A stretch of 58,940 nucleotides of DNA, counting the filler. It is 4 parts of 4 records of this genome, joined end to end, with 100 filler letters (N's around TTAATTAATTAA, not from the genome) between each part and the next. Parts side by side here need not be neighbours in the genome. Positions count along the whole stretch, not along the records: positions 12,153 to 42,747 come from SRR20825019_258; 3 more parts are not named here. One strand, 5' to 3'. A model generated the notes under the pieces. That model had not been told where the DNA came from. It ran no database searches and saw nothing but the letters and a program-made list of their open reading frames with translations. A program made the translations under genes and the position numbers. Below are positions 24,535 to 49,902 of this stretch, piece after piece; the stretch's first letter is position 1; each line of letters opens with the position of its first letter.

Positions 24535-24590
24535 AACTCTGTCACCGGAGTGACCGCAATCCCGGTCAAAGGTGGCGCCAGAACAATCAG

Positions 24591-24621
24591 AAGCCCGCAC
24601 TGGTTTCCAGCGCGGGCTTTT
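24591..24621 (+). terminator. Intrinsic terminator after dctM
   Basis: AAGCCCGC...GCGGGCTTTT. Confidence 0.65.
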
Positions 24622-24714
24622 CCGTATCGGCTTGTTGTCATTTCGGGCATGAGGTGACCATTTCATCGTGCCGGACCTGCCCTCAAGGGAGTGGAGAAAG
24701 TCACCTGGCAGCGG

Positions 24715-24900
24715 TGAGCGCTCTCCGGTGGCACCAACCAGATCCTCTGTCCCAGCCCGCAGATATGAACCGTGTTGTTCAAGGCTGGCAGAAAGCCGTC
24801 GCCTGGACCTTGTCGTCATCAGCCATGGTGTGCCGCTTCCTGACCGGATTGCAGAACGCATTATCGCCCTCTGACGGTCAACTGATAGTCGCCGGTTGGC
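24715..24900 (+). pseudogene. Decayed C-terminal fragment of an ABC ATPase (possible nikE-type relic)
   Basis: LSGG remnant near 24722; RLAESRRLDLVVISH...DRIAERIIAL, then a frameshift to DGQLIVAG; lies directly upstream of nikR. Confidence 0.5.
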
Positions 24901-25040
24901 GAAGTCGAAGAATGCGGTTATCCAGAACCCATGTTTGATTGCGCAAAGTGCGCTTCCGCCGGAAGCAGGATACCGCCGAACGTCTCCGGAAGGCAAGAAA
25001 TGCTCTGACAGGCCTGAAGCAAAGCAGAAGGAAATGTGCC

Positions 25041-25475
25041 ATGCAGCGGATAACCGTTACCCTTGATGACGACCTCATGGAGATGCTGGACAAGGTCGCC
25101 AGCGAGCGTGGGTATCAAAACCGCTCCGAGGCCGTCCGCGATCTGACGCGAGCAGGCCTGCAGCAGACTCTTGTCAATGCGGGCGAGGTGGAAAACAGTA
25201 TCGGAGTGCTGAGTTACGTCTACGATCACAAGGCGCGTGACCTGGCACGGCGACTGACCAATACATTTCATCATGATCACGGCTTGTCGGTCGTCAGCAC
25301 CCATGTTCATCTCGATCATGAACACTGCCTTGAGGTGAGCATCCTGAGGGGACGGCCCGACGAGGTGAAGCGCCTCGCCGACCACGTGACGACCGAACGT
25401 CACGTGATGCATGGCAGACTGGTCCTTATTCCATGGGATGGATCTGAAGACAAAGAAGCTTATCCGACTGTGTAA
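25041..25475 (+). CDS. nikR: Nickel-responsive regulator NikR
   Basis: [12 protein letters not shown]...[30 protein letters not shown]. Confidence 0.95.
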
Positions 25476-25804
25476 ACGATACCGGAGCGATCCAGTTTGT
25501 GAATGTTCCAAACGCCCCGGCGCAAAGGCGTGCCTGCCTTTCATGATGAACCGGAGGATCGTGCTGGTCTGTCAAGCCGCCACCGGCCCGACATCGGCGG
25601 TGCCGGACGCGCCGGCAACCCTTTCGTGGCGCTGACGCCAGAAGTTTTCAAGGAGGCGTGGTCATGCCGCTCCTCTTTCCCAATAGGTCAACGTTTTCTT
25701 GCGCCGATCTTTGTGTCGGGGTCGAGCCGTGCGGTGCCAAGCGGTTCCGGGAAAAGGTCAAAACAGGATATTTGACTGAAACCAGATATCACCACGCGCT
25801 GCTG

Positions 25805-26040
25805 CTTTGTACTATATAAGCAATCTTTGTATATAATTAAAAAATGACATAAGTAATGTATATATTATGTATTAATTTATTAAAGTAAAAGATACTTTAA
25901 TTTATATTAATGATATAATTAAATATATGTAATAGGTAAAAACTATAGGTGCCTTCATTACGCCCATATTTAAATATTTATCTCGGCATCACAAGCGGTA
26001 TTAGAAAATTAAACTTCATTATGTATTAAATAAGGAGGCG
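25805..26040. promoter_or_regulatory. Extremely AT-rich regulatory region upstream of LysR/T3SS
   Basis: 55/60 A+T in 25861-25920; inverted repeat ATTAAAGTA-N5-TACTTTAAT at 25879-25901; RBS TAAGGAGG at 26031-26038. Confidence 0.6.
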
Positions 26041-26046
26041 CTTGAG

Positions 26047-26979
26047 TTGGTTAATCTCAGTATAAAAAAGCTGAACGTGTTTATAGCTGTAGCCGATTGC
26101 GGAAGCTTCTCGGAAGGCGCGCGAAAGACTTTTATCACGCAGCCTGCAGCAGCCAGCATCATTGATGAGATCGAAGCCATCGTCGGGCAGAATCTCTTTA
26201 ATCGGAATGGCAAAATCCGGCGCGCAATTCTGACGGAAAAGGGGCAGCAGGCCTATGATGCCTTTGCTTGTGCCGTGCGCGCTTATGATGATGCTATTGC
26301 CACCTTGTTTGCTGAAAGTAACCAACGAAAGAAGCAGAGGATCCTGATCCAGTCGTCATATGTTGACATCGTTTCCACCGATTGGCTGACGCATATGCTG
26401 AATAACAGCGAGAAAATGCACGTTGTTATTGAGCAGGGCAGCTGGCGGGAAATTGCCAGTGCGGTGGAAGATGCTCAGGATTGCATCGCTTTTCTCGACG
26501 GTGATGTGAAATTCAAGCGCGGCGAGTTCATCTCGCTTGGACAATCGGATCTTGTGCTGGCTTTGCCATGCAATGAAAGCGATAGTATGTTTGCCGGTCG
26601 CGACACAGTGACCTGGGAAGATATTCCTGAAAACTCATATCTTTTCACTGGCATTTGTCCGCAGTGCCTTCAGCAGGTCTACAGCCAGCTCCGCTCTGCC
26701 CATCGTGAGGTCAGCCGTTTGGTCGAGGTTGGCTGCGCTGCGGTTCTTGGCAGCTATCTGCAGCATGGGGAGGCACCGGCGCTGGTGCCCAGAAGCCTGC
26801 TGCCAGCCCTTGGCCAAGGTGGCGAGCCAGTCCGGTATCTTGCTTTGGCCTATTCGAAAGTTTTTGTTCCTTTCGGGCTTTATATTCCTCATGGCAACCA
26901 CCTTCGTCGCCTTCTCGTTGGAAAAGGCCGTCCAGAATATATAGTTCCCGAATGGATATGTAGTAATAATGAACTTTAG
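26047..26979 (+). CDS. Divergent LysR-family regulator
   Basis: LNVFIAVADCGSFSEGARKTFITQPAAASIIDEIE..VG..LF.R HTH. Confidence 0.88.
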   Translation: MVNLSIKKLNVFIAVADCGSFSEGARKTFITQPAAASIIDEIEAIVGQNLFNRNGKIRRAILTEKGQQAYDAFACAVRAYDDAIATLFAESNQRKKQRILIQSSYVDIVSTDWLTHMLNNSEKMHVVIEQGSWREIASAVEDAQDCIAFLDGDVKFKRGEFISLGQSDLVLALPCNESDSMFAGRDTVTWEDIPENSYLFTGICPQCLQQVYSQLRSAHREVSRLVEVGCAAVLGSYLQHGEAPALVPRSLLPALGQGGEPVRYLALAYSKVFVPFGLYIPHGNHLRRLLVGKGRPEYIVPEWICSNNEL

Positions 26980-27088
26980 AATAATATAAATATCATAAAA
27001 TATTATTTTTATATATGTGTTGTTGTATATATATTTGTGGATTATATCGTTTTAATCTTTTCTGCAGATTTATGGAGTTTTGTTCGCT

Positions 27089-27409
27089 ATGAATTCGAGA
27101 AATTCATTCATGAATATTGATTGCAACTTCGAGGAATTCATATTCTCCGACTCACTGAACGGCCTGAAAATGGTCCGAACCTATATTGATACGCGTGTTC
27201 ATATGCTGACGCGGGAAGTGTCTCGCATGAATGCCTCAATGGAAGACCCTGGTGCTTATATCGAAGCGGTGAACCTTTTCAATCAGGCGGCGGCGCTTCT
27301 GGATAAACTGGTCAATGACAGGATCAATGCCGAGGACGGAGCAACTGATCAGGCCGGGGGTTCTGATGCGTTTGAGGCCGAAAGCCGGAATGCCGGTATG
27401 CAGAAATAG
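27089..27409 (+). CDS. Small helical T3SS-associated protein (possibly YscE/SctE-like co-chaperone)
   Basis: First gene of the sct operon; two amphipathic helices; start uncertain (27080/27089/27110). Confidence 0.55.
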   Translation: MNSRNSFMNIDCNFEEFIFSDSLNGLKMVRTYIDTRVHMLTREVSRMNASMEDPGAYIEAVNLFNQAAALLDKLVNDRINAEDGATDQAGGSDAFEAESRNAGMQK

Positions 27410-27459
27410 CTCGGGCCGCTGTCCCTGCGGCAGCGGTGTTTAACTCGTTAGGAAGTGTC

Positions 27460-28533
27460 ATGATCTGGGCTCAGGTTTTCAGACGCGATGAACAGCAACG
27501 TCTGCTCAAAATAGAAGAAGGGCTTTCAACGCTCGGTTCGGCGCTTGACTGTGCGCTGGTGCTTTCTGATCAGGAAGTCGAATCAAAGCATCTTGAATTT
27601 AACGCAGAAGAAGGCAAGCTTTCTGTGCGCCGCGTTGCCGGTGCGCCGGCTCTTTTGGAGCGTCCGGGAAAACGTTCGGATATTGATCTTCAGGAAGACG
27701 AATGGCTTGAGTGTTGCGAAGGCGATCGTATTGTCATTGGCGATGTAGCGATTGTCATTATGGAAACGCCGGGGCAGACGGAGGGTGTCGCGGGCCGTTC
27801 GCGCCGCGGGATTTTCATGCGATGGACGGTACCGCTTTCTGCGGGCGCGCTGGTTTGCGGTGCGCTGGTCTTTTCGATCATGCCCCCTGAAAACAATGCT
27901 GTCGCCGCACATGCTATCGACTATCAGCAGGAGATGCCGCAACCAGCGGCCAGTTCCGATGTGGTCCGGCCGCCGGAATTCGATCTGGCTGATGTTGAAA
28001 GCGCGCTTGTCCGGGCCGGATACAAACCTGAAAACCTGCAGCTTGTGAATGGGCGGTGGAGCTTCACGCTTCACCTGGCCGATAAACAGGCCAGGGATGA
28101 CGCTCTCGTCGCACTGGCGGCGCTGCCAATGCCGCTCGATCCGCAGATATTCAGTGATAGCGACATTGCCAACGCGGTTCAGATCATTCTGGAGAACCGT
28201 CATGCTTCAGCACAACTGGGCACCGTACATGACGGTGCCGTTTTCCTGACCGGCGCGAACAAAGACACCCGTCAGAGCATCATTGATGACATCAGCAGTG
28301 ATGTTGCCGGTGTAACGGGCGTTCACTTCGATCAAAACGATGACGAACTGGACGAGGTGAAGTCCATGGTCTCAGGGCTTTGGAGCGGGGGCTTTCCCTA
28401 TGTGGTTCTCAAAGACCGGCGCATCGTACGGCCGGGCCAGGATCTGACTGCAGATGCCAGGCTGGAAGACGTGGTGGACAACAGCCTGATTATCAATCTG
28501 TCCGGTGAACGCAAGAAAGTGACCTTCCCATGA
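27460..28533 (+). CDS. sctD: T3SS inner-membrane ring protein SctD (YscD/HrpQ-like)
   Basis: N-terminal FHA-like domain (STLGSALDCALVLSD..V...H), one TM, periplasmic ring domains, C-terminal GGFPYVVLKD..IVRPG. Confidence 0.8.
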   Translation: MIWAQVFRRDEQQRLLKIEEGLSTLGSALDCALVLSDQEVESKHLEFNAEEGKLSVRRVAGAPALLERPGKRSDIDLQEDEWLECCEGDRIVIGDVAIVIMETPGQTEGVAGRSRRGIFMRWTVPLSAGALVCGALVFSIMPPENNAVAAHAIDYQQEMPQPAASSDVVRPPEFDLADVESALVRAGYKPENLQLVNGRWSFTLHLADKQARDDALVALAALPMPLDPQIFSDSDIANAVQIILENRHASAQLGTVHDGAVFLTGANKDTRQSIIDDISSDVAGVTGVHFDQNDDELDEVKSMVSGLWSGGFPYVVLKDRRIVRPGQDLTADARLEDVVDNSLIINLSGERKKVTFP

Positions 28534-28988
28534 TACGGCCACAGGTGGAATACAATGACGATGACATGTTCGTGCTGGGCAATATTGCCGCTTTCGCGAT
28601 CCGAAGCGGCTTGGGTGAACCTGCATTGCCACTGTTGAGGTGTGTACAGGGCGAAAGACCGAAGAATGCCGCCGCCTTTATTATGGAATCGCTCTATCTG
28701 CATTCAATCGGCAAGACGGTTTCGGCGATTGAATTCCTGGAAAACTCGAATGCTTTTTCGTCAGAGAAGAACAGCGATGAAGCGCTCGCCTTTCATCTCA
28801 TGCTTTTGCATGAAGACAGGCAGTTCAAGCGCGTTGCCCATCTGGGTGCGGCATATCTGAGTGAAGGTCTGCTGGAATCCGAAGTTGCCATCAATACAGT
28901 CAATACGCTTCTGGAAAGTTGCCAGAACAATCAGTCCGAACACGAAAACGGGTCGGGTGAAACAGCGACAGCAGGAGAAAAATCATGA
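28530..28988 (+). CDS. TPR-like T3SS protein (HrpB1/YscG-like)
   Basis: ALPLLRCVQGERPKNAAAFIMESLYL...G...AIEFLE resembles the HrpB1 L..LRP pattern; lies before the rod gene. Confidence 0.6.
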   Translation: MIRPQVEYNDDDMFVLGNIAAFAIRSGLGEPALPLLRCVQGERPKNAAAFIMESLYLHSIGKTVSAIEFLENSNAFSSEKNSDEALAFHLMLLHEDRQFKRVAHLGAAYLSEGLLESEVAINTVNTLLESCQNNQSEHENGSGETATAGEKS

Positions 28989-29380
28989 TTACATCGATTA
29001 CGACAAGAGCCATCCCGTCGGTCGGCACTGCCAATGGGCTTCAGGGTATCCAGCAGAAGCTTTCGGAGGCGATTGAAGGCACTGAAAATTATCTGCTTGG
29101 TGATGTAAAGGCGGCGCTGGACCCGAACAACAATGTCATGAACGGCCTTCCGAAGCCGGTGGATGATCTGCTGAGCAGAGCCGAAAGCGGAGCCAGAAGC
29201 CCTGAGACGCGGCAACTTTATGAAACCCTTCGCAGCAATATGAACACGCTCAATGAAAACCGGCATATGATCGTGGAAAAGCGCTACAAAAGTAAAGTCC
29301 GTGCTCAGCAGATCGAGCTCTCGGTCAAGGCAGTCAACAAAACCATGTCCGGCATCCAGCAGCTTCTGTCGTCGCAGTGA
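28985..29380 (+). CDS. sctI: T3SS inner rod SctI (YscI/HrpB2-like)
   Basis: C-terminal ELSVKAVNKTMSGIQQLLSSQ; immediately upstream of sctJ. Confidence 0.75.
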   Translation: MITSITTRAIPSVGTANGLQGIQQKLSEAIEGTENYLLGDVKAALDPNNNVMNGLPKPVDDLLSRAESGARSPETRQLYETLRSNMNTLNENRHMIVEKRYKSKVRAQQIELSVKAVNKTMSGIQQLLSSQ

Positions 29381-29400
29381 GCTGTTGAGGAAGGTGTGAC

Positions 29401-30165
29401 ATGAAAATCTGCCGCAGCGCCTGCCGTATCGTGCTGGTTCTTGTGCTGATGCTTTCGTTGTCAGCCTGCAAGGAGGTGCTTCATTCCGGCCTGTCGGAGA
29501 ATGAGGCCAATCAGATCCTCAGTACACTCATTCAGTATAATGTGCCGGCTGAGAAAAAACGCAGCAAGGACGGAACGTCAGAGGTACTGGTTGATCGTGA
29601 CCAGTTTTCCTACGCTGTGGATTTGCTCAACAGTTTCGGGCTGCCACGTGAGAAATATTCGGACATCACGCAGATTTTTGGCAAGGACGGGCTGGTCTCC
29701 TCGCCCAATAAGGAATGGGCTCAGCTGAACTATGCCCGTTCACAGGAACTTGCGGACATGGTTGCCACCATTCCCGGTGTAACCAGCGCCAAGGTGCAGA
29801 TTGCCAACCCGCGTCAGATGAATCCGTTCGATCCGAAAATACCGCCGAATGTCGCCGTTCTGGCGCTGGTCGATAAAGACAGGATTACGCCGGAGCTTGT
29901 ACCGCAGATCAAGAAGCTGATCGAGAACAGTGTCGATGATGTTACCTACGAGAACGTCGGCGTGGTGATTTCTCCGGTCTCGCCACCTGCTCCGCTGCCC
30001 GCCGGCCAGGTCACGATTGCGGGGTTGTCCGTCAGGGAAGCATCGCTTTGGGAGATCTATCGTGTGGCGGCGATTATTGGCGGCGCGGCTGTTCTCGTCG
30101 GCGGTGCGTTCGGGTTCATGCTGAACTGGTTCCTGAACAGGCGTCGCAGAAAGGCGGCGTCATGA
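29401..30165 (+). CDS. sctJ: T3SS inner-ring lipoprotein SctJ
   Basis: Lipobox LSAC, LHSGLSENEAN, GLPR, GLVSSP, IPGVTSAKV, C-terminal TM plus basic tail. Confidence 0.95.
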   Translation: MKICRSACRIVLVLVLMLSLSACKEVLHSGLSENEANQILSTLIQYNVPAEKKRSKDGTSEVLVDRDQFSYAVDLLNSFGLPREKYSDITQIFGKDGLVSSPNKEWAQLNYARSQELADMVATIPGVTSAKVQIANPRQMNPFDPKIPPNVAVLALVDKDRITPELVPQIKKLIENSVDDVTYENVGVVISPVSPPAPLPAGQVTIAGLSVREASLWEIYRVAAIIGGAAVLVGGAFGFMLNWFLNRRRRKAAS

Positions 30166-30773
30166 TGGTCAGCGAAAAGAACGACAACGGCACCATCGTT
30201 GCGGAAGCCAACCCGGCCGCGTTGATGCAACTGGCCGGTATCAAGACCCCTGAAATCGGCGAGGCCCTGTGCAACAGCCAGTTGCTGCGTGCAACACTTG
30301 AGCGGTGGCTGAGCGAGACCCTTCCGGGATACCCGGATGAGATCGGGCCGGAAGAACGCGATCTGTTCATGGTACTCGAACGGTCCGGCAGTGAAGGGCT
30401 TGAGCAGTTGGCCCGCTGCATTGCGCTTTTCATCAATCATGAGCTCGTTTTCCTTGAGACCAACGGCCAGGTTTTGCGGGTTTTGGCCGGATGGTGCGGT
30501 TCGGAAAAGGTGGTTCGCCATGCCGCAACCAGCAGGCAGGCGGTGCCGGAAGCGATTTCCGCGCTCAGCGTATTCGATCAGGAAGAGTTGGTGGCGCAGA
30601 CCAGGAGAATATTCGCCTGTCTTGTCGGGCTGATGCCCGAGGCCTTTCGTGCCCGCCTTACGCTGCGTTGCGAACCGGGCAGCTTGCCGCAACCTGAAAA
30701 GCTCATAAAGACCGACATGAAAGATCTGACCCGGCTGGCAATCGTTGCCACCGGCCTGATGGTGAATGGATAA
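30162..30773 (+). CDS. Probable SctK/HrpB4-like sorting-platform adaptor
   Basis: About 200-aa helical ORF between sctJ and sctL with ATGA overlap; positional call. Confidence 0.6.
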   Translation: MMVSEKNDNGTIVAEANPAALMQLAGIKTPEIGEALCNSQLLRATLERWLSETLPGYPDEIGPEERDLFMVLERSGSEGLEQLARCIALFINHELVFLETNGQVLRVLAGWCGSEKVVRHAATSRQAVPEAISALSVFDQEELVAQTRRIFACLVGLMPEAFRARLTLRCEPGSLPQPEKLIKTDMKDLTRLAIVATGLMVNG

Positions 30774-30778
30774 ATCCC

Positions 30779-31411
30779 ATGCGACACTTCCGTATCAACA
30801 TGGCGGAGCTTCCGGTCTCGCTGCCGCCGGGTTCGGTCATTCCAGTTGAGGCGCTGAAGGCGGTAACGCTTGCCGATGAAATCGAACGCCGGGCACGGTC
30901 GCTTGCAGCCCGGCAATTGCGAAAAGCGCGTGCACGCGGCCATGAGATCGTTGTCAGAAGCCGGCCTATCGGGCTGGCACAAGGTCTGGACCGCTTTATT
31001 GTTGCCGAAAACAAGCTGAATGCGGAGCGCCAGCGACTGGCAGGTCAGATGAAGCCTCTGCTTGAGCAATGCATCCGGCGGGTGCTTGGCGGAATTTCCG
31101 AGGAGATGCGCATTCCCGCACTCTTGCGCAATGTGCTCAGTGATTTTGATGGCACGGATGAGGTGCGGGTCATGGTGCACCCGCAAAACCGGGTGCGCTT
31201 CGATGCAGCACTGGCGCATTTTACCGGTCCGTGCCCTGCACCGCGTGTCACCGTTGATGAAGGTATGTCAGAGGATGACTGCCTGGTTTATGCCGGTCCG
31301 GAGGTGATTGATATCTCGATACCGGCTATCGCGCGGGAAATGGTTGAAGCGCTTTGCTTTGATCGCACCGACCGGCTGTTCTCCTCGCATGATACGGAGG
31401 CACCCAGATGA
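30779..31411 (+). CDS. sctL: T3SS stator SctL (FliH/YscL family)
   Basis: A.EI...A...A..LR.A..G repeat, V.V.VHP, V.VD..M..DDC. Confidence 0.85.
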
Positions 31412-32739
31412 GCGATCCGTTCTCCGGTCCACCTCCTGACAATGCTGAGGATGATTCCGTTGCATCCATGGCCGCGCCTTTTCGCCGCCGGGGCCGGGTC
31501 GTGCGGGTCACCGGGCCGTTGCTGCGCGCAACCGGCCAGTTCAGCATTGGCGAAATATGCCTGATCTCCCGCGGCAGTGGCAAGCCCGCCCTTGCCGAAG
31601 TTGTTGGCTTTGAAGCCAATGAAGCGATCCTGACACCTTACGGGCGTACAGTCGGTATCTCGCATTTCTCTGTCATCGAGCCGTTGATGCAGGAATTTGA
31701 GGTGCCGGTCGCAGAAACCATGGTCGGTCGGGTTCTGAACGCGCTGGGCGAACCTTACGATGGCGGGCGGCCGGTGTCTGCCACCGAGCGCTATCCGGTC
31801 AACAATTCACCGCCGGATCCAATGTCCCGGCCACCGCTCGATCAACCGCTTTCTCTGGGTATTCGCGCCCTTGACGGGCCGCTGACATGTGGTGTGGGCC
31901 AGCGTATGGGTATTTTTGCTGCCGCTGGCGGGGGTAAATCCACGTTGGTTTCGCAGCTCGTGCGTTATGCCCGGTATGATTGCTGCGTGATCGCCCTCAT
32001 CGGTGAACGCGGCCGTGAGGTCCGCGAGTTTATCGAGCAGCAGCTCGGCCCGGACGGAATGGCGCGTTCGGTCGTCATCGTTTCGACCTCGGATCGCCCG
32101 GCGGTCGAGCAGGTCAAGGCGGCCTATACCGCAACAGCTGTCGCTGAGTATTTTCGCGACCGTGGCGCCAACGTCCTACTGATCATGGACAGTCTGACGC
32201 GCTTTGCCAGAGCGCAGCGCCAGATCGGGCTTGCTGCCGGTGAACCACCGACCCGCCGTGGTTTCCCCCCTTCTGTTTTCGAGCAGCTTCCCGGCCTGGT
32301 CGAGCGGGCCGGACGCACACCGCAAGGCGCGATTACGGCCTTTTATACGGTTCTGGTCGAAGGTGACGATATGAACGAGCCGGTGGCCGATGAGACCCGC
32401 TCGCTTCTGGATGGCCATATCATCCTCTCCCGCAAACTGGCAGGTGCAGGCCACTATCCGGCCATTGACGTCACTCAAAGTGTCAGCCGTATCTTTAACA
32501 ATATCGTTGATGATGAGCATAAAAGCGCGGCATTGAAGCTGCGTGCGCTGCTCTCAAAATTCGAAGAAATCGAGCTCCTTGTGCGCATTGGCGAATACAG
32601 TCAGGGATCTGATCCGCTGGGGGATGAAGCACTGGCCCGCAAGGATGATATCGATGCCTTTCTGCGCCAGAATACGCAAAGCTTCAGCGATTTTGATGAA
32701 ACCGTCGCCTTGATGATGAAGGCGGTCGGTCATGCGTAA
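31408..32739 (+). CDS. sctN: T3SS ATPase SctN
   Basis: [61 protein letters not shown]. Confidence 0.97.
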
Positions 32740-33217
32740 TTTTGGCAGCATCGTTCAGATCCGCCGCCGTCGCAGCGAGCAGGCACTGCAAGCAGAACAG
32801 GCTGCAAAGCGGCGGCTTGAGGAAAGCCGCCGGGAACTGGAAGAGGCGCGCGAGGCAGCAGAAGCCTATCGCAAGGAAACCGCGACGCTGGAAATGGAGT
32901 TGATCGCAAAGCTTTTGAACCGTGCGGTCACGCTGGGAGATCTTCAGGATGTCGAAGTTCAACTGAACAAGGCAAAGCTGAAGGCGCAGGAACTGGCGGA
33001 CTGCATTACGGTTTGCAAGAATGCAGAGGAGGAGAATTTTGAGCGCCTCGGCAAGGCACAGGCTTTGCAGCGCACGGCCACCCGCAGGCTGAACAAGAGT
33101 GAAGAACTGGACTCTCATTTTCTTGCGGAAGTGGCTCAGGCCCGGCAGGCGGCAGAAGATGCCCTTATCGACGAATTCTGCGAGACCGCCTTCATCCGAA
33201 GGAGGAACGCGCCATGA
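32732..33217 (+). CDS. sctO: T3SS stalk SctO
   Basis: 161-aa coiled coil directly after sctN (IRRRRSEQA..., E..IDEF). Confidence 0.8.
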
Positions 33218-34344
33218 AGCCTTTGACGTTTGAAAGCCTGTCCGGTGTTTTGCCTTCAATTCCAGCCGGGGCTGTTGCCGTTCTCAACCGTCTCGCAGCA
33301 ACCCAGTGGGTGTTTTCCGGTCAGCAACCGGATGAGGAAGCAGAACCGGTTGAACCGATCACAATTTCCTTTGTTTCATGGGCAAGGCGGCCTGAAGGTT
33401 TTCTGGTTCGGCTTTTCTTTGATCTGACTGCCGGGCGTTGCAGTGTTGTTGTGGAAACCGCCTTTCTCGACCTATTGTCTGATTATGTGCTGCCGGGCTG
33501 GCGGGATGAAGACCCGGCCAACCTGCCGGTGGAGTGGCGCGCCGTTCTCAGTGTGGAAAAATGGCTTCAGCTTGCAGCGCTTGCCGATGCAGTCAACGCG
33601 CTTGAAGCCGAACTGGCAGAGGCGCTGCCAGGGCGAAATGGTCCGGATACCATGCTGGAGGTGCAGATTGGTTTCGCCGGTCAGTCATTCGCATGTCTTC
33701 TGGAACTGGATGATGTTTCGCGTGCGCTTCCACTGTTCGACAGGACACTTCACCCCGTCCGCCACCTGAATTATTTCCAGCCACCTCTGCCGTTTCAGAT
33801 CACCCTGCCGGCGCTCTCTGTGCCGATCCGTGATTTTACCGGATTAAGGCCCGGCGACCTGATCATCGGTGGCGGATTGAGGTCTGAGGGTTTTGAAACC
33901 GGGATCGCAATCGAAGGCCATGAGGGATTTATGGCGCTGATTAATGCCGACGGCAGCGTGACAGTTTCATCTGATCAAAGGAGACAGATGTCCATGAGTA
34001 ACATTGATTATGAAGAGACCGACCGGAACACGCTTGAAGATGACGACGAGTCGGGGTCGCAGCAAGCTGACGCATTGAGCGCGCCGGACGGCCTCGATGA
34101 CCTGCCTGTCCGTGTTGAAGTGGTTCTTGGGGCAGGGCACATCACGCTTTCGCAATTGCGCTGTCTCGGCCCCGGTGCAGTATTTCCGATTGACCTTGAC
34201 CTTTCGGCGCCGGTCACGATCCGTGCGAATGGCAGGGCCATGGCGAAGGGATATCTTGTCCGCGTGGACGAGCGGATTGCGGTGCAAATCCGGGATTTTC
34301 CCGGCATGCACGGCGGCGAGGAAGAGCAGGTCGATCGTGCCTGA
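33214..34344 (+). CDS. sctQ: T3SS C-ring/sorting-platform protein SctQ
   Basis: Two SPOA domains: L.PGDLI and LDDLPVRVEVVLG...L.QL..L.PG.V, IRANG...AKG.LVRVDERIAVQI. Confidence 0.9.
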   Translation: MKPLTFESLSGVLPSIPAGAVAVLNRLAATQWVFSGQQPDEEAEPVEPITISFVSWARRPEGFLVRLFFDLTAGRCSVVVETAFLDLLSDYVLPGWRDEDPANLPVEWRAVLSVEKWLQLAALADAVNALEAELAEALPGRNGPDTMLEVQIGFAGQSFACLLELDDVSRALPLFDRTLHPVRHLNYFQPPLPFQITLPALSVPIRDFTGLRPGDLIIGGGLRSEGFETGIAIEGHEGFMALINADGSVTVSSDQRRQMSMSNIDYEETDRNTLEDDDESGSQQADALSAPDGLDDLPVRVEVVLGAGHITLSQLRCLGPGAVFPIDLDLSAPVTIRANGRAMAKGYLVRVDERIAVQIRDFPGMHGGEEEQVDRA

Positions 34345-34993
34345 GGATTTCGCCCCACTTCTGCCGACAGCGCTTCTGGTGCTCGGCCTTGGCCTTTTGC
34401 CCTTTCTGATGGTCATGGGCACGTCGTTTACCAAGATTTCGATTGTGCTTGTGCTTCTGCGCAACGCGCTTGGTGTTCAGGGCGCGCCGTCAACACTGGT
34501 TATCAACGGTATCGCGCTGACACTGACGGTCTTTATCATGGTGCCGGTCGTCAACGGGATCGTGACGGATCTTCAGGCCGCAAACGCAAATATGAATGAC
34601 TGGAACGGCATTGTGTCGGCCTATCAGATCGCGGTGAAAGGATACTCCGTCTATCTTCTGAAATTCACCAATCAGGCAGAACTGAGCTTCTTCATGGATG
34701 CGGCGCATAAGATGTGGCCGCCATCACTTTCGGCTTCCATTAATGACCACAATCTTCTGATCCTCCTGCCGTCCTATCTCACAAGCGAATTGACGCGGGC
34801 GTTTCAGATCGCCTTCCTGTTGTTTCTACCGTTTGTGATCGTGGATATGGTCGTTTCGAACGTCCTGCTGGCCATGGGGGCGATGATGGTACCGCCGATG
34901 CTCATTTCGCTTCCGATCAAGCTGCTGCTGTTTCTCTCCGTCAACGGCTGGACGCTGCTGCTGCACAATCTCGTACTGAGTTACATCCGCTGA
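34337..34993 (+). CDS. sctR: T3SS export apparatus SctR
   Basis: GTG start; LLPFL.VMGTSFTKI.IVL.LLRNALG, SELTRAFQI, ISLPIKLLLF. Confidence 0.96.
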   Translation: MPEDFAPLLPTALLVLGLGLLPFLMVMGTSFTKISIVLVLLRNALGVQGAPSTLVINGIALTLTVFIMVPVVNGIVTDLQAANANMNDWNGIVSAYQIAVKGYSVYLLKFTNQAELSFFMDAAHKMWPPSLSASINDHNLLILLPSYLTSELTRAFQIAFLLFLPFVIVDMVVSNVLLAMGAMMVPPMLISLPIKLLLFLSVNGWTLLLHNLVLSYIR

Positions 34994-35025
34994 TGTTGAT
35001 GTGAAGGCCGAAAGGAGATTTTGGC

Positions 35026-35289
35026 ATGAATACAGATAATATCATGGTTATGACGCAGAACGCTCTGGCGCTGGTCTTTTATCTGTCCATGCCAATCATT
35101 CTGGCCGCGACTGTTATCGGACTTTTGATCGCTGTCGTGCAGACGCTGGTGCAGGTGCAGGAACAAACTGTTTCCTTTGCCGCGAAACTGACCGCCGTCA
35201 TTGTTCTGCTACTCGTCATGGGGGCCGGTATGGCCGCTTCGCTGAAAGCCTACGCAGAACTGGCCTTCTCGCACATTGTCGGGATTTAG
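35026..35289 (+). CDS. sctS: T3SS export apparatus SctS
   Basis: GLLIAVVQTLVQVQEQTVSFAAKL. Confidence 0.95.
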   Translation: MNTDNIMVMTQNALALVFYLSMPIILAATVIGLLIAVVQTLVQVQEQTVSFAAKLTAVIVLLLVMGAGMAASLKAYAELAFSHIVGI

Positions 35290-35298
35290 GTAGCGATC

Positions 35299-36102
35299 AT
35301 GGATCTGGCCTTTCCGATATCTGCCAATCTCAATGCGGAAATGACCAGACTTCTGTTTGCGCAAGCGCTGGTGATGATGCGGTTTTATGGTTTTTTCAGC
35401 CTGTCACCGTTTTTCTCCCGCTTTGCCATGACACGGATGGTGCGCGCTGGCGTCATTACTGCAGTCAGCCTTGTGGTAACGCCTGCGATCTACACGAGCC
35501 TCTCTGATCAACTGCCTTCAACCTGGCTTTATCTGACGCTGATGATGAAGGAACTGGCGCTTGGACTTGTGCTGGGTTCGCTGACCTGGCTTCCTGTGCG
35601 TGGCCTGCAGGTTGCAGGTCTCATCGTTGATACCCAGCGCGGGGCGACACAGTCACAGTCGCTGGACCCGATTTTCGCGGAGCAAGGCAGCGAAACCGCG
35701 ATCCTGTTCGCTCAGGTTTTTTCCGGCTACTTCTTTGCCACGGGCGGTTTTCTCGCCGTTCTGGCGACGCTTTATCAAAGCTTCACTTTCTGGCCCGCTG
35801 CCGAACCGATGCCGAGCATGACACAGCATGATTTCACGCTCTTTATCAGCATGGCCGGCTCTATCTTCATGTCTGCTGTCATCATCATCGCCCCGATTTC
35901 CGGCTTTATGTTGCTCGCCGATATCGCAATTGCCTTTCTGGCGCGTTCTGCATCAAGCCTGAATGCGTTGACGCTCGGTATGCCGGTGAAGTCAGGCATC
36001 CTGATTGTGATGCTGATGTTCTACATATCCATTATCTATCCTCAGCTGATGCAACATCTCAACAATGGGCTTGAGGTGATGACGAGGGTGTTTGGCCAGT
36101 GA
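35299..36102 (+). CDS. sctT: T3SS export apparatus SctT
   Basis: KELALG, AG.IVDTQRG (injectisome-type), L.MPVKS. Confidence 0.93.
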   Translation: MDLAFPISANLNAEMTRLLFAQALVMMRFYGFFSLSPFFSRFAMTRMVRAGVITAVSLVVTPAIYTSLSDQLPSTWLYLTLMMKELALGLVLGSLTWLPVRGLQVAGLIVDTQRGATQSQSLDPIFAEQGSETAILFAQVFSGYFFATGGFLAVLATLYQSFTFWPAAEPMPSMTQHDFTLFISMAGSIFMSAVIIIAPISGFMLLADIAIAFLARSASSLNALTLGMPVKSGILIVMLMFYISIIYPQLMQHLNNGLEVMTRVFGQ

Positions 36103-37124
36103 GCGACGACAAAACCGAACAGCCGACATATCAAAAACTGAGAAAGCTCCGCGAGGAAGGGCAGCTTCCTCCGCGCAAAAACGTTGTCGAAGCCGGGCTG
36201 ATTATGTTTGCCGTTGGTGTTTTGTTTTTTCTCATGCCCGCCTTCACCGATGCGTTGCAGAGCCTTTTGAAAGATATTGTGTCTTTCGCCGGTGCACGCG
36301 ATATCAGCGAGGTGACCTCAACCATTGTGCGGGATGTGGTCAAAGTGCTGCTGCTGCTGCTCACCTTCTGCTGGTTGACAGCCGCGTTTACCCTTTTCAC
36401 GACGCTTTTGTTGAACGGTTTCAATATTGCGCCCAAGGCGATGACGCCGAAACCTCAGCATTTCAATCCCGTCAGCCGGGTCAAGTCGATTTTCGCAAAG
36501 AGCAATTTTTACAATTTCCTGCGGATGCTGACGTATTTTATTTTTATCTTTCTGGTTTTTATACTGATGGTTCGAAACAATATCGGCAATTCCGTCAATG
36601 CCAGCTATTGTGGTTTCGGATGTGTTGGCCCGCTTTTCCTAATGCTCATAAAAAACCTGGTCATCACGATCATTTTGTTCCTGCTGGTCTTTGCCGGAGC
36701 CGATTTTCTGATTCAGACCAAGCTGTTTCTTTCCCAGAACAAGATGTCGAAAGACGAGGTGAAGCGGGAGCACAAGAGCCAGGAGGGGAATCCCGAGATC
36801 AAGGCGCAACGCTCCGGCATCGCGCAAGAAGATGCTTTTCAGCCGACGATCGGCGAATCCACACATGTTGTCTTCAGTGAAGATCTTCTGGTGGCCGTGA
36901 TTTACTATCCCGAAGCCAGAAACCGCCCTTATGTGGTGACACGAATGCGTGGCCCCCGGGTGGGCGGTATGATCCGCCAGTTGAAAGCTGCGCGTATTCC
37001 GGTGTTTTACATGCCGGAAGCTTTGCCGGAGTTTTATGGCATGGCGCGCAGCGGCCAGTATATGCCGCCAGCATCTGCCAAGGTTATGGCCAGGGTGATG
37101 GAAGAGGTGGAGCGGCGACAATAG
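36099..37124 (+). CDS. sctU: T3SS switch protein SctU lacking the NPTH motif
   Basis: DKTEQPT.QKLRK.REEGQ, 4 TM, FNPV, KMSKDEVKREHKSQEGNPEIK; NPTH loop position reads VVFSEDLLVAV. Confidence 0.93.
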   Translation: MSDDKTEQPTYQKLRKLREEGQLPPRKNVVEAGLIMFAVGVLFFLMPAFTDALQSLLKDIVSFAGARDISEVTSTIVRDVVKVLLLLLTFCWLTAAFTLFTTLLLNGFNIAPKAMTPKPQHFNPVSRVKSIFAKSNFYNFLRMLTYFIFIFLVFILMVRNNIGNSVNASYCGFGCVGPLFLMLIKNLVITIILFLLVFAGADFLIQTKLFLSQNKMSKDEVKREHKSQEGNPEIKAQRSGIAQEDAFQPTIGESTHVVFSEDLLVAVIYYPEARNRPYVVTRMRGPRVGGMIRQLKAARIPVFYMPEALPEFYGMARSGQYMPPASAKVMARVMEEVERRQ

Positions 37125-37135
37125 TAAGCCGGTCT

Positions 37136-38584
37136 TCAGGGGTTTTGCGAGGGAACTGGTCCTGAAGGTGAACGCCTGCTCTTCGGCTGGATCACCAGTG
37201 TGATTGTTTTAGCGCTTTCGTCGTTGAAGACTTCATAGTCGAAGTCGTCTCGTCCCTGAATGGCAGTAAAGACCTCTGGAGGCCCTGTATAGGTGTCGGT
37301 GTAGGCGAACAAGTCATAGGTGCCCGGTGTGCCGCCCTTCACCTGCAGAACCGTATCGGTGATTGCGAGGCTGCCGCCAACACGTACGGAGTCGTTGTTT
37401 GCCGCTGCCTCTTCGAACAGATCAAATGCGCAAAGCGCGGATTTCTGTGGTGTGCCGGAAAGGCTTAAATTGCCGGAGACAGTCAGCCTGCCATGCTCGT
37501 TCCTGTTGAAATTACCTGGTGCCAGTATCGCTCCGACGATGGAGACAGTGCGCCCTGCGGTGCCTGCGATTCCGGTTCCCGAAAGCATGGCATTGGCAGT
37601 GCTGATCACGATATCACCGCCAAGATTTCCAGTGATACTGAGATTGCAGCCATCAGAAATGCTCGTTCCGGCAAAGGAGGCGCTGTTGCTGGCGAACTCC
37701 AGCAGTTTCGGCTGGTTGCTTTCTGCCGAAGGAGGCTGACAGGTAAGGTTGAGTTCGGCAGTCGTGTCCTCGCTGGAAAGAACATTTGTGAAGACCGTGC
37801 TGTCCGGGATGAACACATCAAGCGCTGCATTGCCGGAATCAAAGGCGATGTTGCTGCGTAGCCGTGCCCCCGTTCCTCTCGCCTCATCTCCCAATACGAG
37901 TTTGGAATTGCTCCGAATACTGGTTTGTCCGTCATAGCTTTTGTTGCCGGTGAAAACGATGGTCCGGCCGAGAACTCGGACTTCGAGCGGTGCCAGCGTA
38001 CCGCTTGTCGCCTCTTTTATGTCTGCTTCGATATATGCCCGGCCCTGTGCAATGCCGAACCCTGCATAAGCTTCGTTCGGGGGAAAGCTTGCCGGGGTCA
38101 GCAAGAGGGGGGAGCCTGTAAGCCTGTAACCATCTGTACTGAAGGTCAGCCAGCTTGCTTCGGGACTATCGCCGATCTGTACAGTTCCGGCTTCTGAACC
38201 GCTGAAAACCGCCACACCTCTTGTGCTCTGCGACCATGTCAGAGCCTCGCTGGCGTCCATATTCGTCCAGTTGTTGTTGCTTGCATTCCATGTGCCGGAC
38301 CCGCCTGTGATCGTGTTCTTGACCGGTTTCTGCGCGCGGCCATCCCAGTAAAGTGCCTCATAGGAAGCCTGCTTGTTGATCTGGCGAAGGGGTTGCTCGA
38401 GTTTTGTCAGTGTTTCACGAACCACATGCCCGTCCTGACTGTTATTATGGTCGAGCAGGTTACCCTGAAGGCACCCCGCTGCCGGGAGAAACAGCGCTAC
38501 AACCATGAACCTCCAGGTAAAGGCCTGCCAGTATACCCGCTTCTGCGGATGCCTGAATCTGATAAGGCGGGAACACGCAGGCAT
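37136..38584 (-). CDS. Putative lipoprotein with autotransporter-passenger-like beta-helix, no beta-barrel
   Basis: Lipobox-like AAG/C at residue 38; YWDG...GGSGTWN..NNNWT; passenger repeat FTGNKSYDGQTSI; LSGTG, ILAPG, LTVSGNLSL; ends without a barrel or terminal aromatic residue. Confidence 0.7.
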   Translation of the reverse strand: MPACSRLIRFRHPQKRVYWQAFTWRFMVVALFLPAAGCLQGNLLDHNNSQDGHVVRETLTKLEQPLRQINKQASYEALYWDGRAQKPVKNTITGGSGTWNASNNNWTNMDASEALTWSQSTRGVAVFSGSEAGTVQIGDSPEASWLTFSTDGYRLTGSPLLLTPASFPPNEAYAGFGIAQGRAYIEADIKEATSGTLAPLEVRVLGRTIVFTGNKSYDGQTSIRSNSKLVLGDEARGTGARLRSNIAFDSGNAALDVFIPDSTVFTNVLSSEDTTAELNLTCQPPSAESNQPKLLEFASNSASFAGTSISDGCNLSITGNLGGDIVISTANAMLSGTGIAGTAGRTVSIVGAILAPGNFNRNEHGRLTVSGNLSLSGTPQKSALCAFDLFEEAAANNDSVRVGGSLAITDTVLQVKGGTPGTYDLFAYTDTYTGPPEVFTAIQGRDDFDYEVFNDESAKTITLVIQPKSRRSPSGPVPSQNP

Positions 38585-38839: not shown

Positions 38840-39613
38840 TCAGCCAGCGGTTACCGATGCGCCATCGAGCAGAATTTCTGCTTCGAGCTTACGCGCCTCG
38901 GGCGCATGGCCGGTACATTGATCGGGATCATCGGCTGAACCCGGATGAACCATCAGGACACATTCATCGCCAGCTGCCTTGATCAGGCGCGGGAGCCATA
39001 ATGAGACTTCATCCGGCTTGTCCAAACGCAGGAAACCGGAGAAGTCGGCATTCACTGGCCATCCCGCTTTTCCGAAATGTCGACCGGCAACCCACGCCAG
39101 CGCAGCAATTACGCTCACCTTCAGGCCACCGGCTCGTATGTTCAGAAGCAGGGATGCAGCCGATGCTGGCAATGGTACCCGCATCCAGGTCGTTTCACTG
39201 CGCGGCAAACGTGCCGCATCCTGGAACAGTCCGGGCAGGCAATGACAATGCTGGTGGCCGTCATAATAATCCGGCAGGAAGCCAAAAACGGTCTCAAAAG
39301 CCTCCGTCTGCCGAGCGAAGTCCGCGCCCGCATCTTCAGGCAGACGTCTGCTCAGGCTAAGACGCATCAGCGTCTGAAGTGGATGACAGACAGATCCTTC
39401 CGCAAAGGCATGCGTCAGGTTGAGATGTAGCCCGATAACCGCACCTTCATCACGAAGAGCACGCAGTTTTTGCACGGATGCTGCATCCAGCTGCCCGTCT
39501 ATCATAACAGACGTGCCGTTGATCTTCTGCTTTGCGAGCAGATCAAGGATCACGTCATTATGTCCCGCTCCGAGTCCGAAATCATCAGCAATCAGAAGCG
39601 GGCCATTGTTCAT
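38840..39613 (-). CDS. YdjC/ChbG/HpnK-family deacetylase
   Basis: IADDFG, GLHLNL, DGHQH.H, MVHPG. Confidence 0.92.
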   Translation of the reverse strand: MNNGPLLIADDFGLGAGHNDVILDLLAKQKINGTSVMIDGQLDAASVQKLRALRDEGAVIGLHLNLTHAFAEGSVCHPLQTLMRLSLSRRLPEDAGADFARQTEAFETVFGFLPDYYDGHQHCHCLPGLFQDAARLPRSETTWMRVPLPASAASLLLNIRAGGLKVSVIAALAWVAGRHFGKAGWPVNADFSGFLRLDKPDEVSLWLPRLIKAAGDECVLMVHPGSADDPDQCTGHAPEARKLEAEILLDGASVTAG

Positions 39614-41115
39614 TTTGGTGCCACATAAACGACCGAGAAGTCGTAAGGCGGGGCCATGCCTGCCAGAAGCGATTTATGCTGAGCTGTCATGGTTTCAGGA
39701 AACGCCTGCATATCGTTTGTTTCAGCCCAGCGTACGCCGTCGTCCATGCATGCCTGATCAACCTGCCCCTCGGGCGCGAGCGAGCAGAAGATCACGCCGT
39801 TGACGTCCCGCCAGTTTTCAAGCGGCGGATAATAGGACTGTAGCTGGTCTGGAACGTTCGGAAGCGCTTCAATGTCTTCTGGCGCGAAGAAGGCAATATG
39901 TGCGGCATTATTGCCTTTTGACACCCAGCGTAATGGGCCCTCATGGTTATCGTCCCAGTTTTTGACGGCAGCCTGCGCCGCCTCGGGGAAAGGTTCAGCG
40001 GGGAGCCCCATGTCGCCGACAAGTGAATTGGCGACGCGGAAAACAATCGCTCCGGCGATCATCACAGGCCATATGAAGCGAAAGGCATTTACCAGCTTCG
40101 GTCCATTGATGGCGATAAACCCGGGTTCGGCATTGGCGACCAGATAGAGCGTGAAAGAAAAGCCAATGGGAATGGCCCATGGTACGCCGAGTTCGGCAAA
40201 ACCGCTGGCGCCGATCAAAACCGTCAGCAACCATGGGCCAATCGTCATGAATGCGAGCGTTTCGCCCGGCGCATGCCAACTGAATATCCGGCGAACCCGT
40301 GTTGCCACTCCGCCTGTCACCAGCAGGATGGCAGCAAGAACGATCGGAACCGGCCAGTAGGAGAGTGGCACTATCGCGAACTGGACAAGATGGCTGAGCT
40401 TGCTTGCCAGATCGCTGGTTGCGCGCTGGTCTTCCGCGTATTTAATCGCACCGGAGTGCTCGATGAGCCAGAGTGCGTGGGGCGCCAGTGTTATGATGAA
40501 TGCGAGAAGTGCAGTGTAAGGAGCCGATGTAGTCCACAGCCAGCGGTTCTTTCGGGTCAGGCTCAACCCCAGAAGCGGAACCAGCAGCACAATCGTGTAA
40601 TACTTGCTGAGCATGGCGGCTGTGGCAAAAACACCGAAGAGCACAGCATACAAGGTGCGATACTGCACGTCTCGATCTGCCGTTTTCACAAACGCCCAGG
40701 CAAGCCACGGCCATGTCGCCAGGCAGACCGTGTTCATATTAAGCTTGTCGGCGAGTGTGAGATAGGGAAAAGCCAGCGCACAAAGCGCCATGGCGACCAG
40801 AAGTGGCAGCCGGTCAAACTTCAGCGCCCGGCCAAGGGCGACGATGCCAAGCATCCCGACCGCCAGATTAACTGCTGACAGCAGGTAAAATGAAGCAATG
40901 GTTTTCGGTGCAACCATGAACCATAGTTTCGCCATCCATGGCAGAAACTGCGGGTGTTTGTCGGAGCCCATCAACCAGTGCTGCGACCAAGCATAAATCT
41001 CTGCCATATCGCCATGAAACGCAACATCACCTTTGGCGATAACAATCATCGCCCACCAAAAAACACAATGTATAAGTGTGAATTGTACAGGGGGCAGTGT
41101 ATCAAGTTTCTTCAT
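39610..41115 (-). CDS. GT-C membrane glycosyltransferase (ArnT/PMT_2-like)
   Basis: DMAE.YAW, KHPQF..W, N.N, LSKY, PH..WL; multiple TM; start 41115 or 41163. Confidence 0.85.
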   Translation of the reverse strand: MKKLDTLPPVQFTLIHCVFWWAMIVIAKGDVAFHGDMAEIYAWSQHWLMGSDKHPQFLPWMAKLWFMVAPKTIASFYLLSAVNLAVGMLGIVALGRALKFDRLPLLVAMALCALAFPYLTLADKLNMNTVCLATWPWLAWAFVKTADRDVQYRTLYAVLFGVFATAAMLSKYYTIVLLVPLLGLSLTRKNRWLWTTSAPYTALLAFIITLAPHALWLIEHSGAIKYAEDQRATSDLASKLSHLVQFAIVPLSYWPVPIVLAAILLVTGGVATRVRRIFSWHAPGETLAFMTIGPWLLTVLIGASGFAELGVPWAIPIGFSFTLYLVANAEPGFIAINGPKLVNAFRFIWPVMIAGAIVFRVANSLVGDMGLPAEPFPEAAQAAVKNWDDNHEGPLRWVSKGNNAAHIAFFAPEDIEALPNVPDQLQSYYPPLENWRDVNGVIFCSLAPEGQVDQACMDDGVRWAETNDMQAFPETMTAQHKSLLAGMAPPYDFSVVYVAPK

Positions 41116-42112: not shown

Positions 42113-42114
42113 GA

Positions 42115-42747: not shown

Positions 42748-42847
42748 NNNNNNNNNNNNNNNNNNNNNNNNNNNNNNNNNNNNNNNNNNNNTTAATTAAT
42801 TAANNNNNNNNNNNNNNNNNNNNNNNNNNNNNNNNNNNNNNNNNNNN
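42748..42847. other. Artificial contig spacer
   Basis: N-run-TTAATTAATTAA-N-run. Confidence 0.98.
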
Positions 42848-49802: not shown

Positions 49803-49902
49803 NNNNNNNNNNNNNNNNNNNNNNNNNNNNNNNNNNNNNNNNNNNNTTAATTAATTAANNNNNNNNNNNNNNNNNNNNNNNNNNNNNNNNNNNNNNNNNN
49901 NN
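49803..49902. other. Artificial contig spacer
   Basis: N-run-TTAATTAATTAA-N-run. Confidence 0.98.

Follow-up and report, generated by a model that had tools for sequence, protein, structure and literature searches.

The 58,940-bp stretch of DNA analysed here (the window), which contains three short masked N stretches, carries between positions 27080 and 37124 an injectisome-type type III secretion system (T3SS) operon in which neither a needle gene nor a ruler gene can be recognised, and whose SctU protein is without the NPTH autocleavage motif. The question raised by this locus is whether it encodes a needle-less, non-switching T3SS, as had been proposed in a reading of the window made from its letters alone (the sequence-only reading). 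Our analysis indicates that the region is probably the central operon of a functional, rare and fast-evolving injectisome related to the Rhc ('Rhizo') systems. The missing needle, ruler and cleavage motif are a lineage trait common to working rhizobial systems and not the sign of a needle-less machine.

The operon is intact and encodes the injectisome core

Fourteen open reading frames (ORFs) were found on the + strand at 27080-37124, all co-oriented and without frameshift or internal stop, in the order orf109, sctD, orf152 (a tetratricopeptide repeat, TPR, gene), orf131 (SctI-like), sctJ, sctK, sctL, sctN, sctO, sctQ, sctR, sctS, sctT and sctU. Seven junctions show stop/start overlaps of 4-8 nt: 4 nt at sctD/orf152 (28530-28533), orf152/orf131 (28985-28988), sctJ/sctK, sctL/sctN, sctO/sctQ (33214-33217) and sctT/sctU, and 8 nt at sctN/sctO. 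The Walker A (GGGKST) and Walker B (LLIMDS) motifs are readable in the SctN translation. The sequence-only reading had described 14 co-oriented intact genes, the sctD/TPR and sctO/sctQ overlaps and intact ATPase motifs, and all of these were confirmed. Pfam and NCBIfam models identified SctJ, SctL, SctN, SctO, SctQ, SctR, SctS, SctT and SctU, and SctD weakly; the injectisome core genes sctJ, L, N, O, Q, R, S, T and U are all present and intact. No Pfam or NCBIfam family match was obtained for orf109, orf152, orf131 or the gene in the sctK slot.

Needle, ruler and SctU motif

No ORF of the operon matched the SctF or SctP models, and there is no room for sctP because the stop of sctO overlaps the start of sctQ (33214-33217), in agreement with the earlier statement that no needle or ruler is recognisable in the slots where the Ysc layout has them. 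With needle_F (PF09392), no match was found at E <= 0.01 in 22 ORFs in or beside the operon, and none at E <= 1 in the four unassigned ORFs. A local SctF hidden Markov model (HMM), built from 18 ORFs of T3SS loci, had no match in the window or in any family locus, the best being orf131 with an E of 1.7. T3SS_needle_F (SctF), Flg_hook (SctP), HrpJ (SctW) and the translocon model SseC gave nothing above cut-off, either in the entire 4.3-Mb genome of a relative with the complete cluster (G001) or in the plasmid of another, Leisingera sp. S132.

In the motif columns, the window SctU has SEDL or FSED, according to the alignment used, instead of NPTH. The motif is missing as well from the SctU of the closest relative among species genomes (L001), of Leisingera, of all seven family-level metagenome loci and of all 12 database clusters, so that the absence pointed out in the sequence-only reading proved to be fixed in the lineage; none of the 23 SctU sequences seen at family level has NPTH. 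Among the other 73 metagenome SctU/FlhB rows, 61 have NPTH, 8 have NPVH, and NPEH, NPTR and HLTD are found once each, with one row truncated. Outside the lineage, the RhcU of S. fredii (L090 13989-15026) and two Bradyrhizobium RhcU (L034, L039) were also found without NPTH (RGTA, TGQA and VGQA, respectively), as was the SctU of Aestuariispira insulae (L009 / G002; FGGG). A literature search found no statement that classical Rhc-I RhcU is without NPTH.

When PF09392 and PF02120 were run as a control on the symbiotic plasmid of S. fredii, which carries a pilus-forming T3SS, nothing was found above cut-off. Rhc-I systems make NopA/NopB pili and translocate effectors (PMC3973906, PMC3574062). The S. 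fredii pilin has 63-71 aa and is without homology to other pilins, and the pilins of plant pathogens and rhizobia have no detectable mutual similarity (PMC3973906). The idea of a needle-less T3SS has itself been published for atypical Rhc clusters (PMC3973906). Because the same absences of SctF, SctP and NPTH hold for the pilus-forming Rhc-I, the needle-less inference is not upheld.

A needle gene outside the rod block was seen in other T3SS loci. In a marine alphaproteobacterial T3SS clade (Cognatiyoonia, Gemmobacter), an sctE-sctF pair lies away from the TPR-SctI-SctJ block, and such separate pairs were located at L014 2609-3201 (- strand) and L017 15579-16152 (+ strand).

The missing sctV and sctC are found in a second module in relatives

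Scanning species genomes with SctN returned one close relative, the Rhizobiales isolate L001 (71% identity), all others being at or below 61%. L001 has the same 14-gene order, with a 249-aa TPR gene (TPR249) between sctJ and sctK; sctU is followed by o101 (small, TPR-like), o208 (uncharacterised, 208 aa), a secretin, a Secretin_N-only protein and sctV. Its secretin carries a T2SS-T3SS_pil_N domain, and its genome has a single FHIPEP gene. In the window, no FHIPEP (SctV) or secretin (SctC) was found among the 60 ORFs scanned by Pfam, nor by tblastn with the L001 proteins, and no homolog of TPR249, o101 or o208 was found in the 27 kb upstream or 21 kb downstream of the operon. A tblastn match of o208 at 43973-44356 (E 8e-4) falls in a repeat-rich, probably non-coding stretch and was dropped. 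Because the window is also without sctV and sctC, a lack to which the sequence-only reading does not refer, the operon is not a whole system.

The best plasmid match was Leisingera sp. S132 (SctN 64.7%), on a complete plasmid of 178.6 kb. The 14-gene operon lies there at 83.9-93.8 kb with no sctC or sctV within 16 kb, and an o103-o206-secretin-Secretin_N-sctV module is found at 156.4-161.4 kb, approximately 65 kb from the operon. This module adjoins an M85 (NleC-like) peptidase gene and four small ORFs. The Peptidase_M85 gene was located at L087 7454-8212 on the - strand (E 4e-45). Peptidase_M85 is the NleC-type, NF-kB p65-degrading zinc protease family, and the Leisingera member probably serves this T3SS lineage as an effector.

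A scan of metagenomes with the SctU alignment gave seven family-level loci of 33-75% identity. Loci L095, L096 (which begins within sctL) and L097 are contiguous, with the order orf109-D-orf152-orf131-J-K-L-N-O-Q-R-S-T-U-TPR249-o101-o208-secretin-Secretin_N-V. The two-piece secretin (T2SS-T3SS_pil_N plus Secretin, and Secretin_N) is found in these three loci, in L001 and in Leisingera. The closest relative of the window is contig L094 (SctU 75%), in which, as in the window, an orf482 homolog on the opposite strand comes after sctU. Gene content, synteny, loss of the motif and the second module of the relatives are direct observations: the 14-gene order held up in the relatives, and these also have a module with sctC and sctV. 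The AlphaFold2 (AF2) model of the o208 family (predicted local distance difference test, pLDDT, 50.5) has helices and disordered linkers and no strands and is too poor for a test against the T3S4/SctP fold; no usable Atlas match was obtained for o208.

The sctU gene has a dN/dS of 0.07-0.09 against L094, with dS saturated, indicating purifying selection. Since this value comes together with intact ORFs, the operon is most likely in use, presumably with a second locus outside the window. The lineage is rare: it was present in one of 401 sampled alphaproteobacterial species genomes, and 12 SctU clusters were obtained at E <= 1e-40 among 5.8 billion proteins, with Martelella, Kaustia, Ochrobactrum and Epibacterium among the source names. 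No description of the lineage was found in the literature search, and the category tables of published T3SS surveys may list it. What is defined here is a rare injectisome lineage with a conserved 20-gene cluster in marine and plant-associated Alphaproteobacteria, cultured strains included.

Genes without family matches

For the gene in the sctK slot, the alignment of its family with a YscK-seeded family (hhalign probability 90%, P 1.6e-6) supports the SctK assignment at the level of sequence profiles. For orf109 (27080..27409, +), the conserved first gene of the operon, same-slot homologs are found in L001, Leisingera, L095 and L097, and no match was obtained in Pfam, NCBIfam or the PDB. It had been labelled SctE-like; the label of a YscE/SctE-like chaperone (PF08988) is not supported, as Pfam gave no match and hhalign against the SctE family gave a probability of 1.8%.

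The TPR label of orf152 (28530..28988, +), a protein putatively of the YscG/HrpB1-like kind, holds. The AF2 model (pLDDT 82, seven helices) aligned with YscG (2p58_C) over 112 of 112 residues with a Z of 12.8 and a root mean square deviation (rmsd) of 2.5; this Z is tied with those of class II chaperones and generic TPRs. Foldseek with the same model returned generic TPR matches only, at E >= 1.6e-3. A local iterative HMM started from orf152 had 34 matches in T3SS loci, four from its own lineage and 30 further ORFs; most of the strongest immediately precede the SctI/SctJ slot, and other TPR genes are among the weaker ones. The orf152-like members of L006, L028 and L020 match Type_III_YscG or HrpB1_HrpK below cut-off, and orf152 itself matches neither. 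The layout of L006 is sctD-?-SctF-[orf152-like]-SctI-sctJ-sctK.

The SctI label of orf131 (28985..29380, +), a putative SctI/HrpB2/NolB-like inner-rod family protein encoded directly upstream of sctJ, is weakly supported by its C-terminus. The family has an invariant C-terminal pattern, ELS.KA..K...G.QQLLSSQ, and its last 24 residues align end-to-end with SctI C-termini (hhalign P 3e-4, probability 40%); there is also a resemblance to the C-terminus of NolB. The nearest Atlas clusters were HrpB2/needle_F (0.90-0.92) and NolB (0.86). Pfam gave no match for orf131, SctI PF17001 and HrpB2 included, and nothing scored in a protein homolog search. By sequence, orf131 is the sole needle-superfamily candidate in the operon and in the conserved 20-gene cluster. 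Of the labels in the sequence-only reading, TPR was borne out by the predicted fold and SctI weakly by the C-terminus, and SctE-like found no support. Profile searches of orf131, orf152, orf109 and a family of ~95-aa proteins (described below) against PDB sequences found no T3SS protein.

Candidate filament genes in relatives

In L097, sctV is followed by two Gly-rich ORFs, one Q-rich ORF, one of 113 aa and a large one. Contig C17 of G001 begins with the same four small genes (38-58% identity), and the last of them matches a 93-aa ORF beside the Leisingera module (36%); the window contains none of these genes. When 1.84 billion representatives were searched in full with HMMER for this ~95-aa family, only 10 proteins came up at E <= 0.001. 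Nine of them are 74-120 aa long; their N-terminus varies, and their C-terminus, which ends in LG or MG, is strongly conserved. The remaining one, a WD40 protein, was a false match. Pfam found nothing meaningful in the nine members or in the Gly-rich and Q-rich neighbours. By its size, context and conservation in three relatives, the ~95-aa protein is a candidate for the filament.

Relation to Rhc and other known systems

The sequence-only reading had held that the gene order differs from that of the Rhc cluster; this did not survive comparison. From the SctI slot to sctU, the order is identical, gene for gene, to the central operon of S. fredii (L090), nolB-rhcJ-nolU-nolV-sctN-rhcO-sctQRSTU, with sctD, orf152 and orf109 as extra genes. 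The order [NolB/SctI-like]-J-K-L-N-O-Q-R-S-T-U, with no sctP between sctO and sctQ, is that of Rhc-I (S. fredii/Bradyrhizobium tts), and a gene like hrpP/yscP is absent from all Rhc subgroups (PMC3574062). A split secretin derived from Tad is the distinguishing mark of the Rhc family. The secretin of the Rhizo class consists of two genes, RhcC2 with a Tad/CpaC architecture and RhcC1, an N-domain remnant (Abby and Rocha, PMC3459982). Likewise, the relatives of the window have a Tad-like and a Secretin_N gene; in Rhc-I the second gene is Secretin_N/N0 (NolW = Secretin_N + N0), and S. fredii RhcC2 carries T2SS-T3SS_pil_N. An SctU without NPTH, the lack of SctF and SctP model matches, and an sctV encoded apart, in a unit that also has a TPR gene, are further points in common. 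Unlike in Rhc-I, sctD and the YscG/HrpB1-like TPR gene are here inside the main operon, which begins with orf109; both secretin genes of the relatives are adjacent and beside sctV; and identities are low (SctU about 25%, SctN 52-53%). No homologs of NolB, NopA, NopX or NopC were found by HMM or tblastn. TtsI was not seen, the neighbouring regulators being LysR-type; no scan for tts boxes was made.

The Rhc-II/III systems (pNGR234b, P. syringae T3SS-2, R. etli) are likewise without the appendage genes nopA, nopB and nopC in the descriptions of PMC3973906 and PMC3574062, which suggest 'needle-less' secretion for them and place small TPR ORFs upstream of sctV, as in this lineage. The RhcC2 of S. 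fredii Rhc-II (L092) groups loosely with the secretins of the lineage, and no HrpK-like translocators of the Rhc-II/III kind were seen here. In the Hrp2 systems of Xanthomonas and Ralstonia, the hrpB operon has the order hrpB1-hrpB2-hrcJ-hrpB4-hrcL-hrcN-hrpB7. As here, a TPR-like HrpB1 and an SctI-like HrpB2 precede J-K-L-N-O, the pilin and the T3S4 protein being in other operons; relatives of orf152 touch HrpB1_HrpK and orf131 neighbours HrpB2 clusters. In contrast, the Hrp2 SctU keeps NPTH (L055), the Hrp2 secretin is a single NF-T3SS-type gene, and Q-R-S-T-U are arranged otherwise. With Ysc (Yersinia enterocolitica pYV) the operon shares the N-O-[P]-Q-R-S-T-U and D-E-F-G-H-I-J-K-L modules and an orf152 fold that resembles YscG, whereas yscF, yscP, the NPTH of YscU, the one-piece secretin YscC, the gatekeeper YopN/TyeA and the tip and translocon genes are not recognisable here.

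An IQ-TREE of SctN+R+S+T+U (27 rows, 1356 columns) recovered the window, L001 and Leisingera at 100/100 on a stem of 1.26, and grouped this lineage with Rhc-I (stem 1.2) and Aestuariispira at 93/96. L091 (an R. etli IE4803 plasmid that is not the classical Rhc-III cluster), L092 (Rhc-II) and L041, in which at least one of the SctN, R, T and U markers was missing within reach, were left out of the trees. In the SctN tree the lineage lies in a polytomy. In a 20-row secretin tree, the lineage, Aestuariispira and RhcC2 are on one side (84) versus nine Tad CpaC. The Tad-type secretin of Aestuariispira insulae (contig C21) is the nearest outgroup to the secretins of the lineage. We call the lineage Rhc-related because of these common rare characters, though its tree placement is unstable; a rare, deep-branching and Rhc-related lineage in split layout is likely what is represented here.

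Proposed working of the system and alternative explanations

In the system that we propose, SctD and SctJ would form the rings of the inner membrane, SctK, L, N, O and Q the sorting platform together with the ATPase complex, and SctR, S, T and U would be four of the five proteins of the export apparatus. The operon would also supply an SctI-like rod protein and its TPR partner. It would be insufficient alone. SctV and a two-piece secretin (Tad-type plus N-domain remnant) would be predicted to lie beyond the window at a second locus, in a split layout as on the Leisingera plasmid, together with two further TPR proteins, an uncharacterised protein of ~205 aa and a block of small secreted-type proteins. 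As the missing ruler and the non-cleavable SctU are common to Rhc-I, substrate switching would differ from the Ysc model of SctP and SctU-NPTH. The extracellular filament would probably be built from a small, fast-evolving protein missed by SctF models, as NopA is in Rhc-I. We infer the presence of the second locus in the same genome, the activity of the system and the identity of the filament subunit.

Several observations weigh against this proposal. The second locus in the window's own genome is deduced from relatives by comparative analysis, and no homolog of the ~95-aa family or of the second module was found in the window. The filament subunit of the lineage is at present a candidate: hhalign of the ~95-aa family against the SctF, SctI, SctE and orf131 alignments gave probabilities below 1.2% each, and orf131 had no match at E <= 1 to the NolB/NopB model PF17398. 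Regarding the kinship with Rhc, a quick tree of N+R+S+T puts the lineage beside a Yersinia-chromosomal/Paludibacterium clade (SH-like approximate likelihood ratio test, SH-aLRT, 89) and not with Rhc-I, so that the Rhc grouping stands with SctU included and is lost without it. The five-protein grouping could be due to long-branch attraction, given the long stems, or to convergence of SctU. With SctU proteins outside the lineage, identity reaches 28% at most, and Y4YQ_C, touched by SctD proteins of the lineage, also matches non-Rhc SctD proteins and is hence not diagnostic.

A T3SS subtype that is truly without needle, length control and switch, secreting to the medium or periplasm or through a short rod, would account for the negative searches with SctF, SctP, SctW and SseC models in G001 and the Leisingera plasmid, for the lack of local SctF HMM matches in the family loci, for the loss of NPTH in every member, and for a 20-gene cluster that holds orf131 as its one needle-superfamily candidate. 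It is nevertheless unlikely. The same negatives and the same loss occur in the pilus-forming, effector-translocating Rhc-I (PMC3973906), the pilins of plant pathogens and rhizobia show no similarity that can be detected (PMC3973906), and the operon is partial, without sctC and sctV. Moreover, the relatives' secretin, three TPR chaperone-like proteins, M85 peptidase and block of small secreted-type proteins fit delivery to a host cell. A related reading is that the lineage, Rhc-I and Aestuariispira form a super-lineage without the SctP/NPTH switch, in which orf131 replaces SctF here and there is no length-measured needle; that this holds is unlikely, and so is its corollary that orf131, handled by orf152, builds a short conduit that may or may not be extended by the unrelated ~95-aa protein.

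The absence of sctV, sctC, TPR249, o101 and o208 homologs around the operon could also mean that it is an orphaned remnant, inactive or decaying after the loss of sctC and sctV. We consider this improbable: all 14 ORFs are intact and tightly coupled, the dN/dS of sctU against L094 (0.07-0.09) is low, in L094 sctU is intact and the junction is the same, and on the Leisingera plasmid the layout is split and the second module looks to be in working order. In one Sinorhizobium cluster, the main operon is described as lying ~30 kb from the V, D and C genes (PMC3973906). Equally improbable is an independent, non-Rhc lineage that converged on a Tad-type secretin and on the loss of sctP and NPTH. Such an origin would agree with the disappearance of the Rhc grouping when SctU is removed, with the SctN polytomy and with a secretin grouping of only 84% against nine Tad references; against it, three rare characters (a two-piece secretin with the same two domain types, no sctP between sctO and sctQ, loss of NPTH) coincide with Rhc-I, and the genes between the SctI slot and sctU follow the same order. 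The Rhc-related injectisome in split layout leaves a question that can be taken to the bench, namely by what means substrates are switched in Rhc-type systems, this one included, when ruler and SctU cleavage are both missing. For annotation, missing SctF or SctP HMM matches, or sctC and sctV that are not beside the core operon, do not amount to a needle-less or defective system.

Features of individual genes and flanking regions

The short sctD (27436..28533, +; 365 aa, inner-membrane ring) matched Yop-YscD_cpl below cut-off (E 1.7e-5); its product is 28% identical to SctD of L001, and it is the L001 and Leisingera homologs that also touch Y4YQ_C. The inner-membrane ring lipoprotein gene sctJ (29401..30165, +) scored 182 bits with TIGR02544 against a cut-off of 162. 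It is followed by sctK (30162..30773, +), a sorting-platform component assigned by position and by hhalign to the YscK-seeded family, and by the stator gene sctL (30779..31411, +; Pfam HrpE 4.2e-6, TIGR02499 below cut-off). The ATPase gene sctN (31408..32739, +) matched ATP-synt_ab (1.3e-86) and T3SS_ATPase_C and is 71% identical to that of L001. The stalk gene sctO (32732..33217, +) matched Pfam YscO (5.6e-11), and the cytoplasmic ring gene sctQ (33214..34344, +) matched FliMN_C (6.2e-20). For sctR (34337..34993, +; FliP 1.1e-57, TIGR01102 over cut-off), the longest ORF runs from 34097; the likely start is at about 34337, as the FliP match begins at residue 97 of the long ORF. The last three genes are sctS (35026..35289, +; Bac_export_3 4.1e-18), sctT (35299..36102, +; TIGR01401 169.5 bits, cut-off 163) and sctU without NPTH (36099..37124, +; Bac_export_2 1.2e-55).

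Directly upstream of the operon, a LysR-family gene (26047..26979, +; Pfam HTH_1 and LysR_substrate) is a candidate regulator of the operon, a role that would be in keeping with its position; the Leisingera cluster is likewise flanked by LysR genes. The end of the operon is marked by the convergent orf482 (37136..38584, -), which lies 11 nt past it and encodes a putative lipoprotein of 482 aa with a lipobox-like N-terminal signal and G-x-W / N-W repeats, which we take to resemble the passenger repeats of autotransporters. No Pfam or NCBIfam family match was found for orf482, and its membership in the T3SS is putative. The sctU-orf482 junction is also present in metagenome contig L094 (SctU 74-75%, orf482 57% identity).

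An Rfam scan of the window found no family. The masked stretches, at 12053-12152, 42748-42847 and 49803-49902, each consist of 44 N, 12 bases and 44 N, and ORFs that cross them are unreliable. A 1-kb stretch in which no convincing gene is present contains a 106-bp tandem repeat (1.9 copies, 80% match) at 43782-43987 and gave rise to a spurious tblastn match. Further downstream of the operon than orf482, at 38840-42606 on the - strand, are YdjC-like, PMT_2 (ArnT-like glycosyltransferase), GT2-like and GtrA-like ORFs, the GT2 and GtrA labels being taken from the translations alone; together these genes resemble a set for the modification of lipid-linked sugars. The G+C content is 0.50-0.53 at 24001-30000, around the LysR gene and the beginning of the operon, versus 0.55-0.61 in the flanks, and this low value would fit horizontal acquisition.

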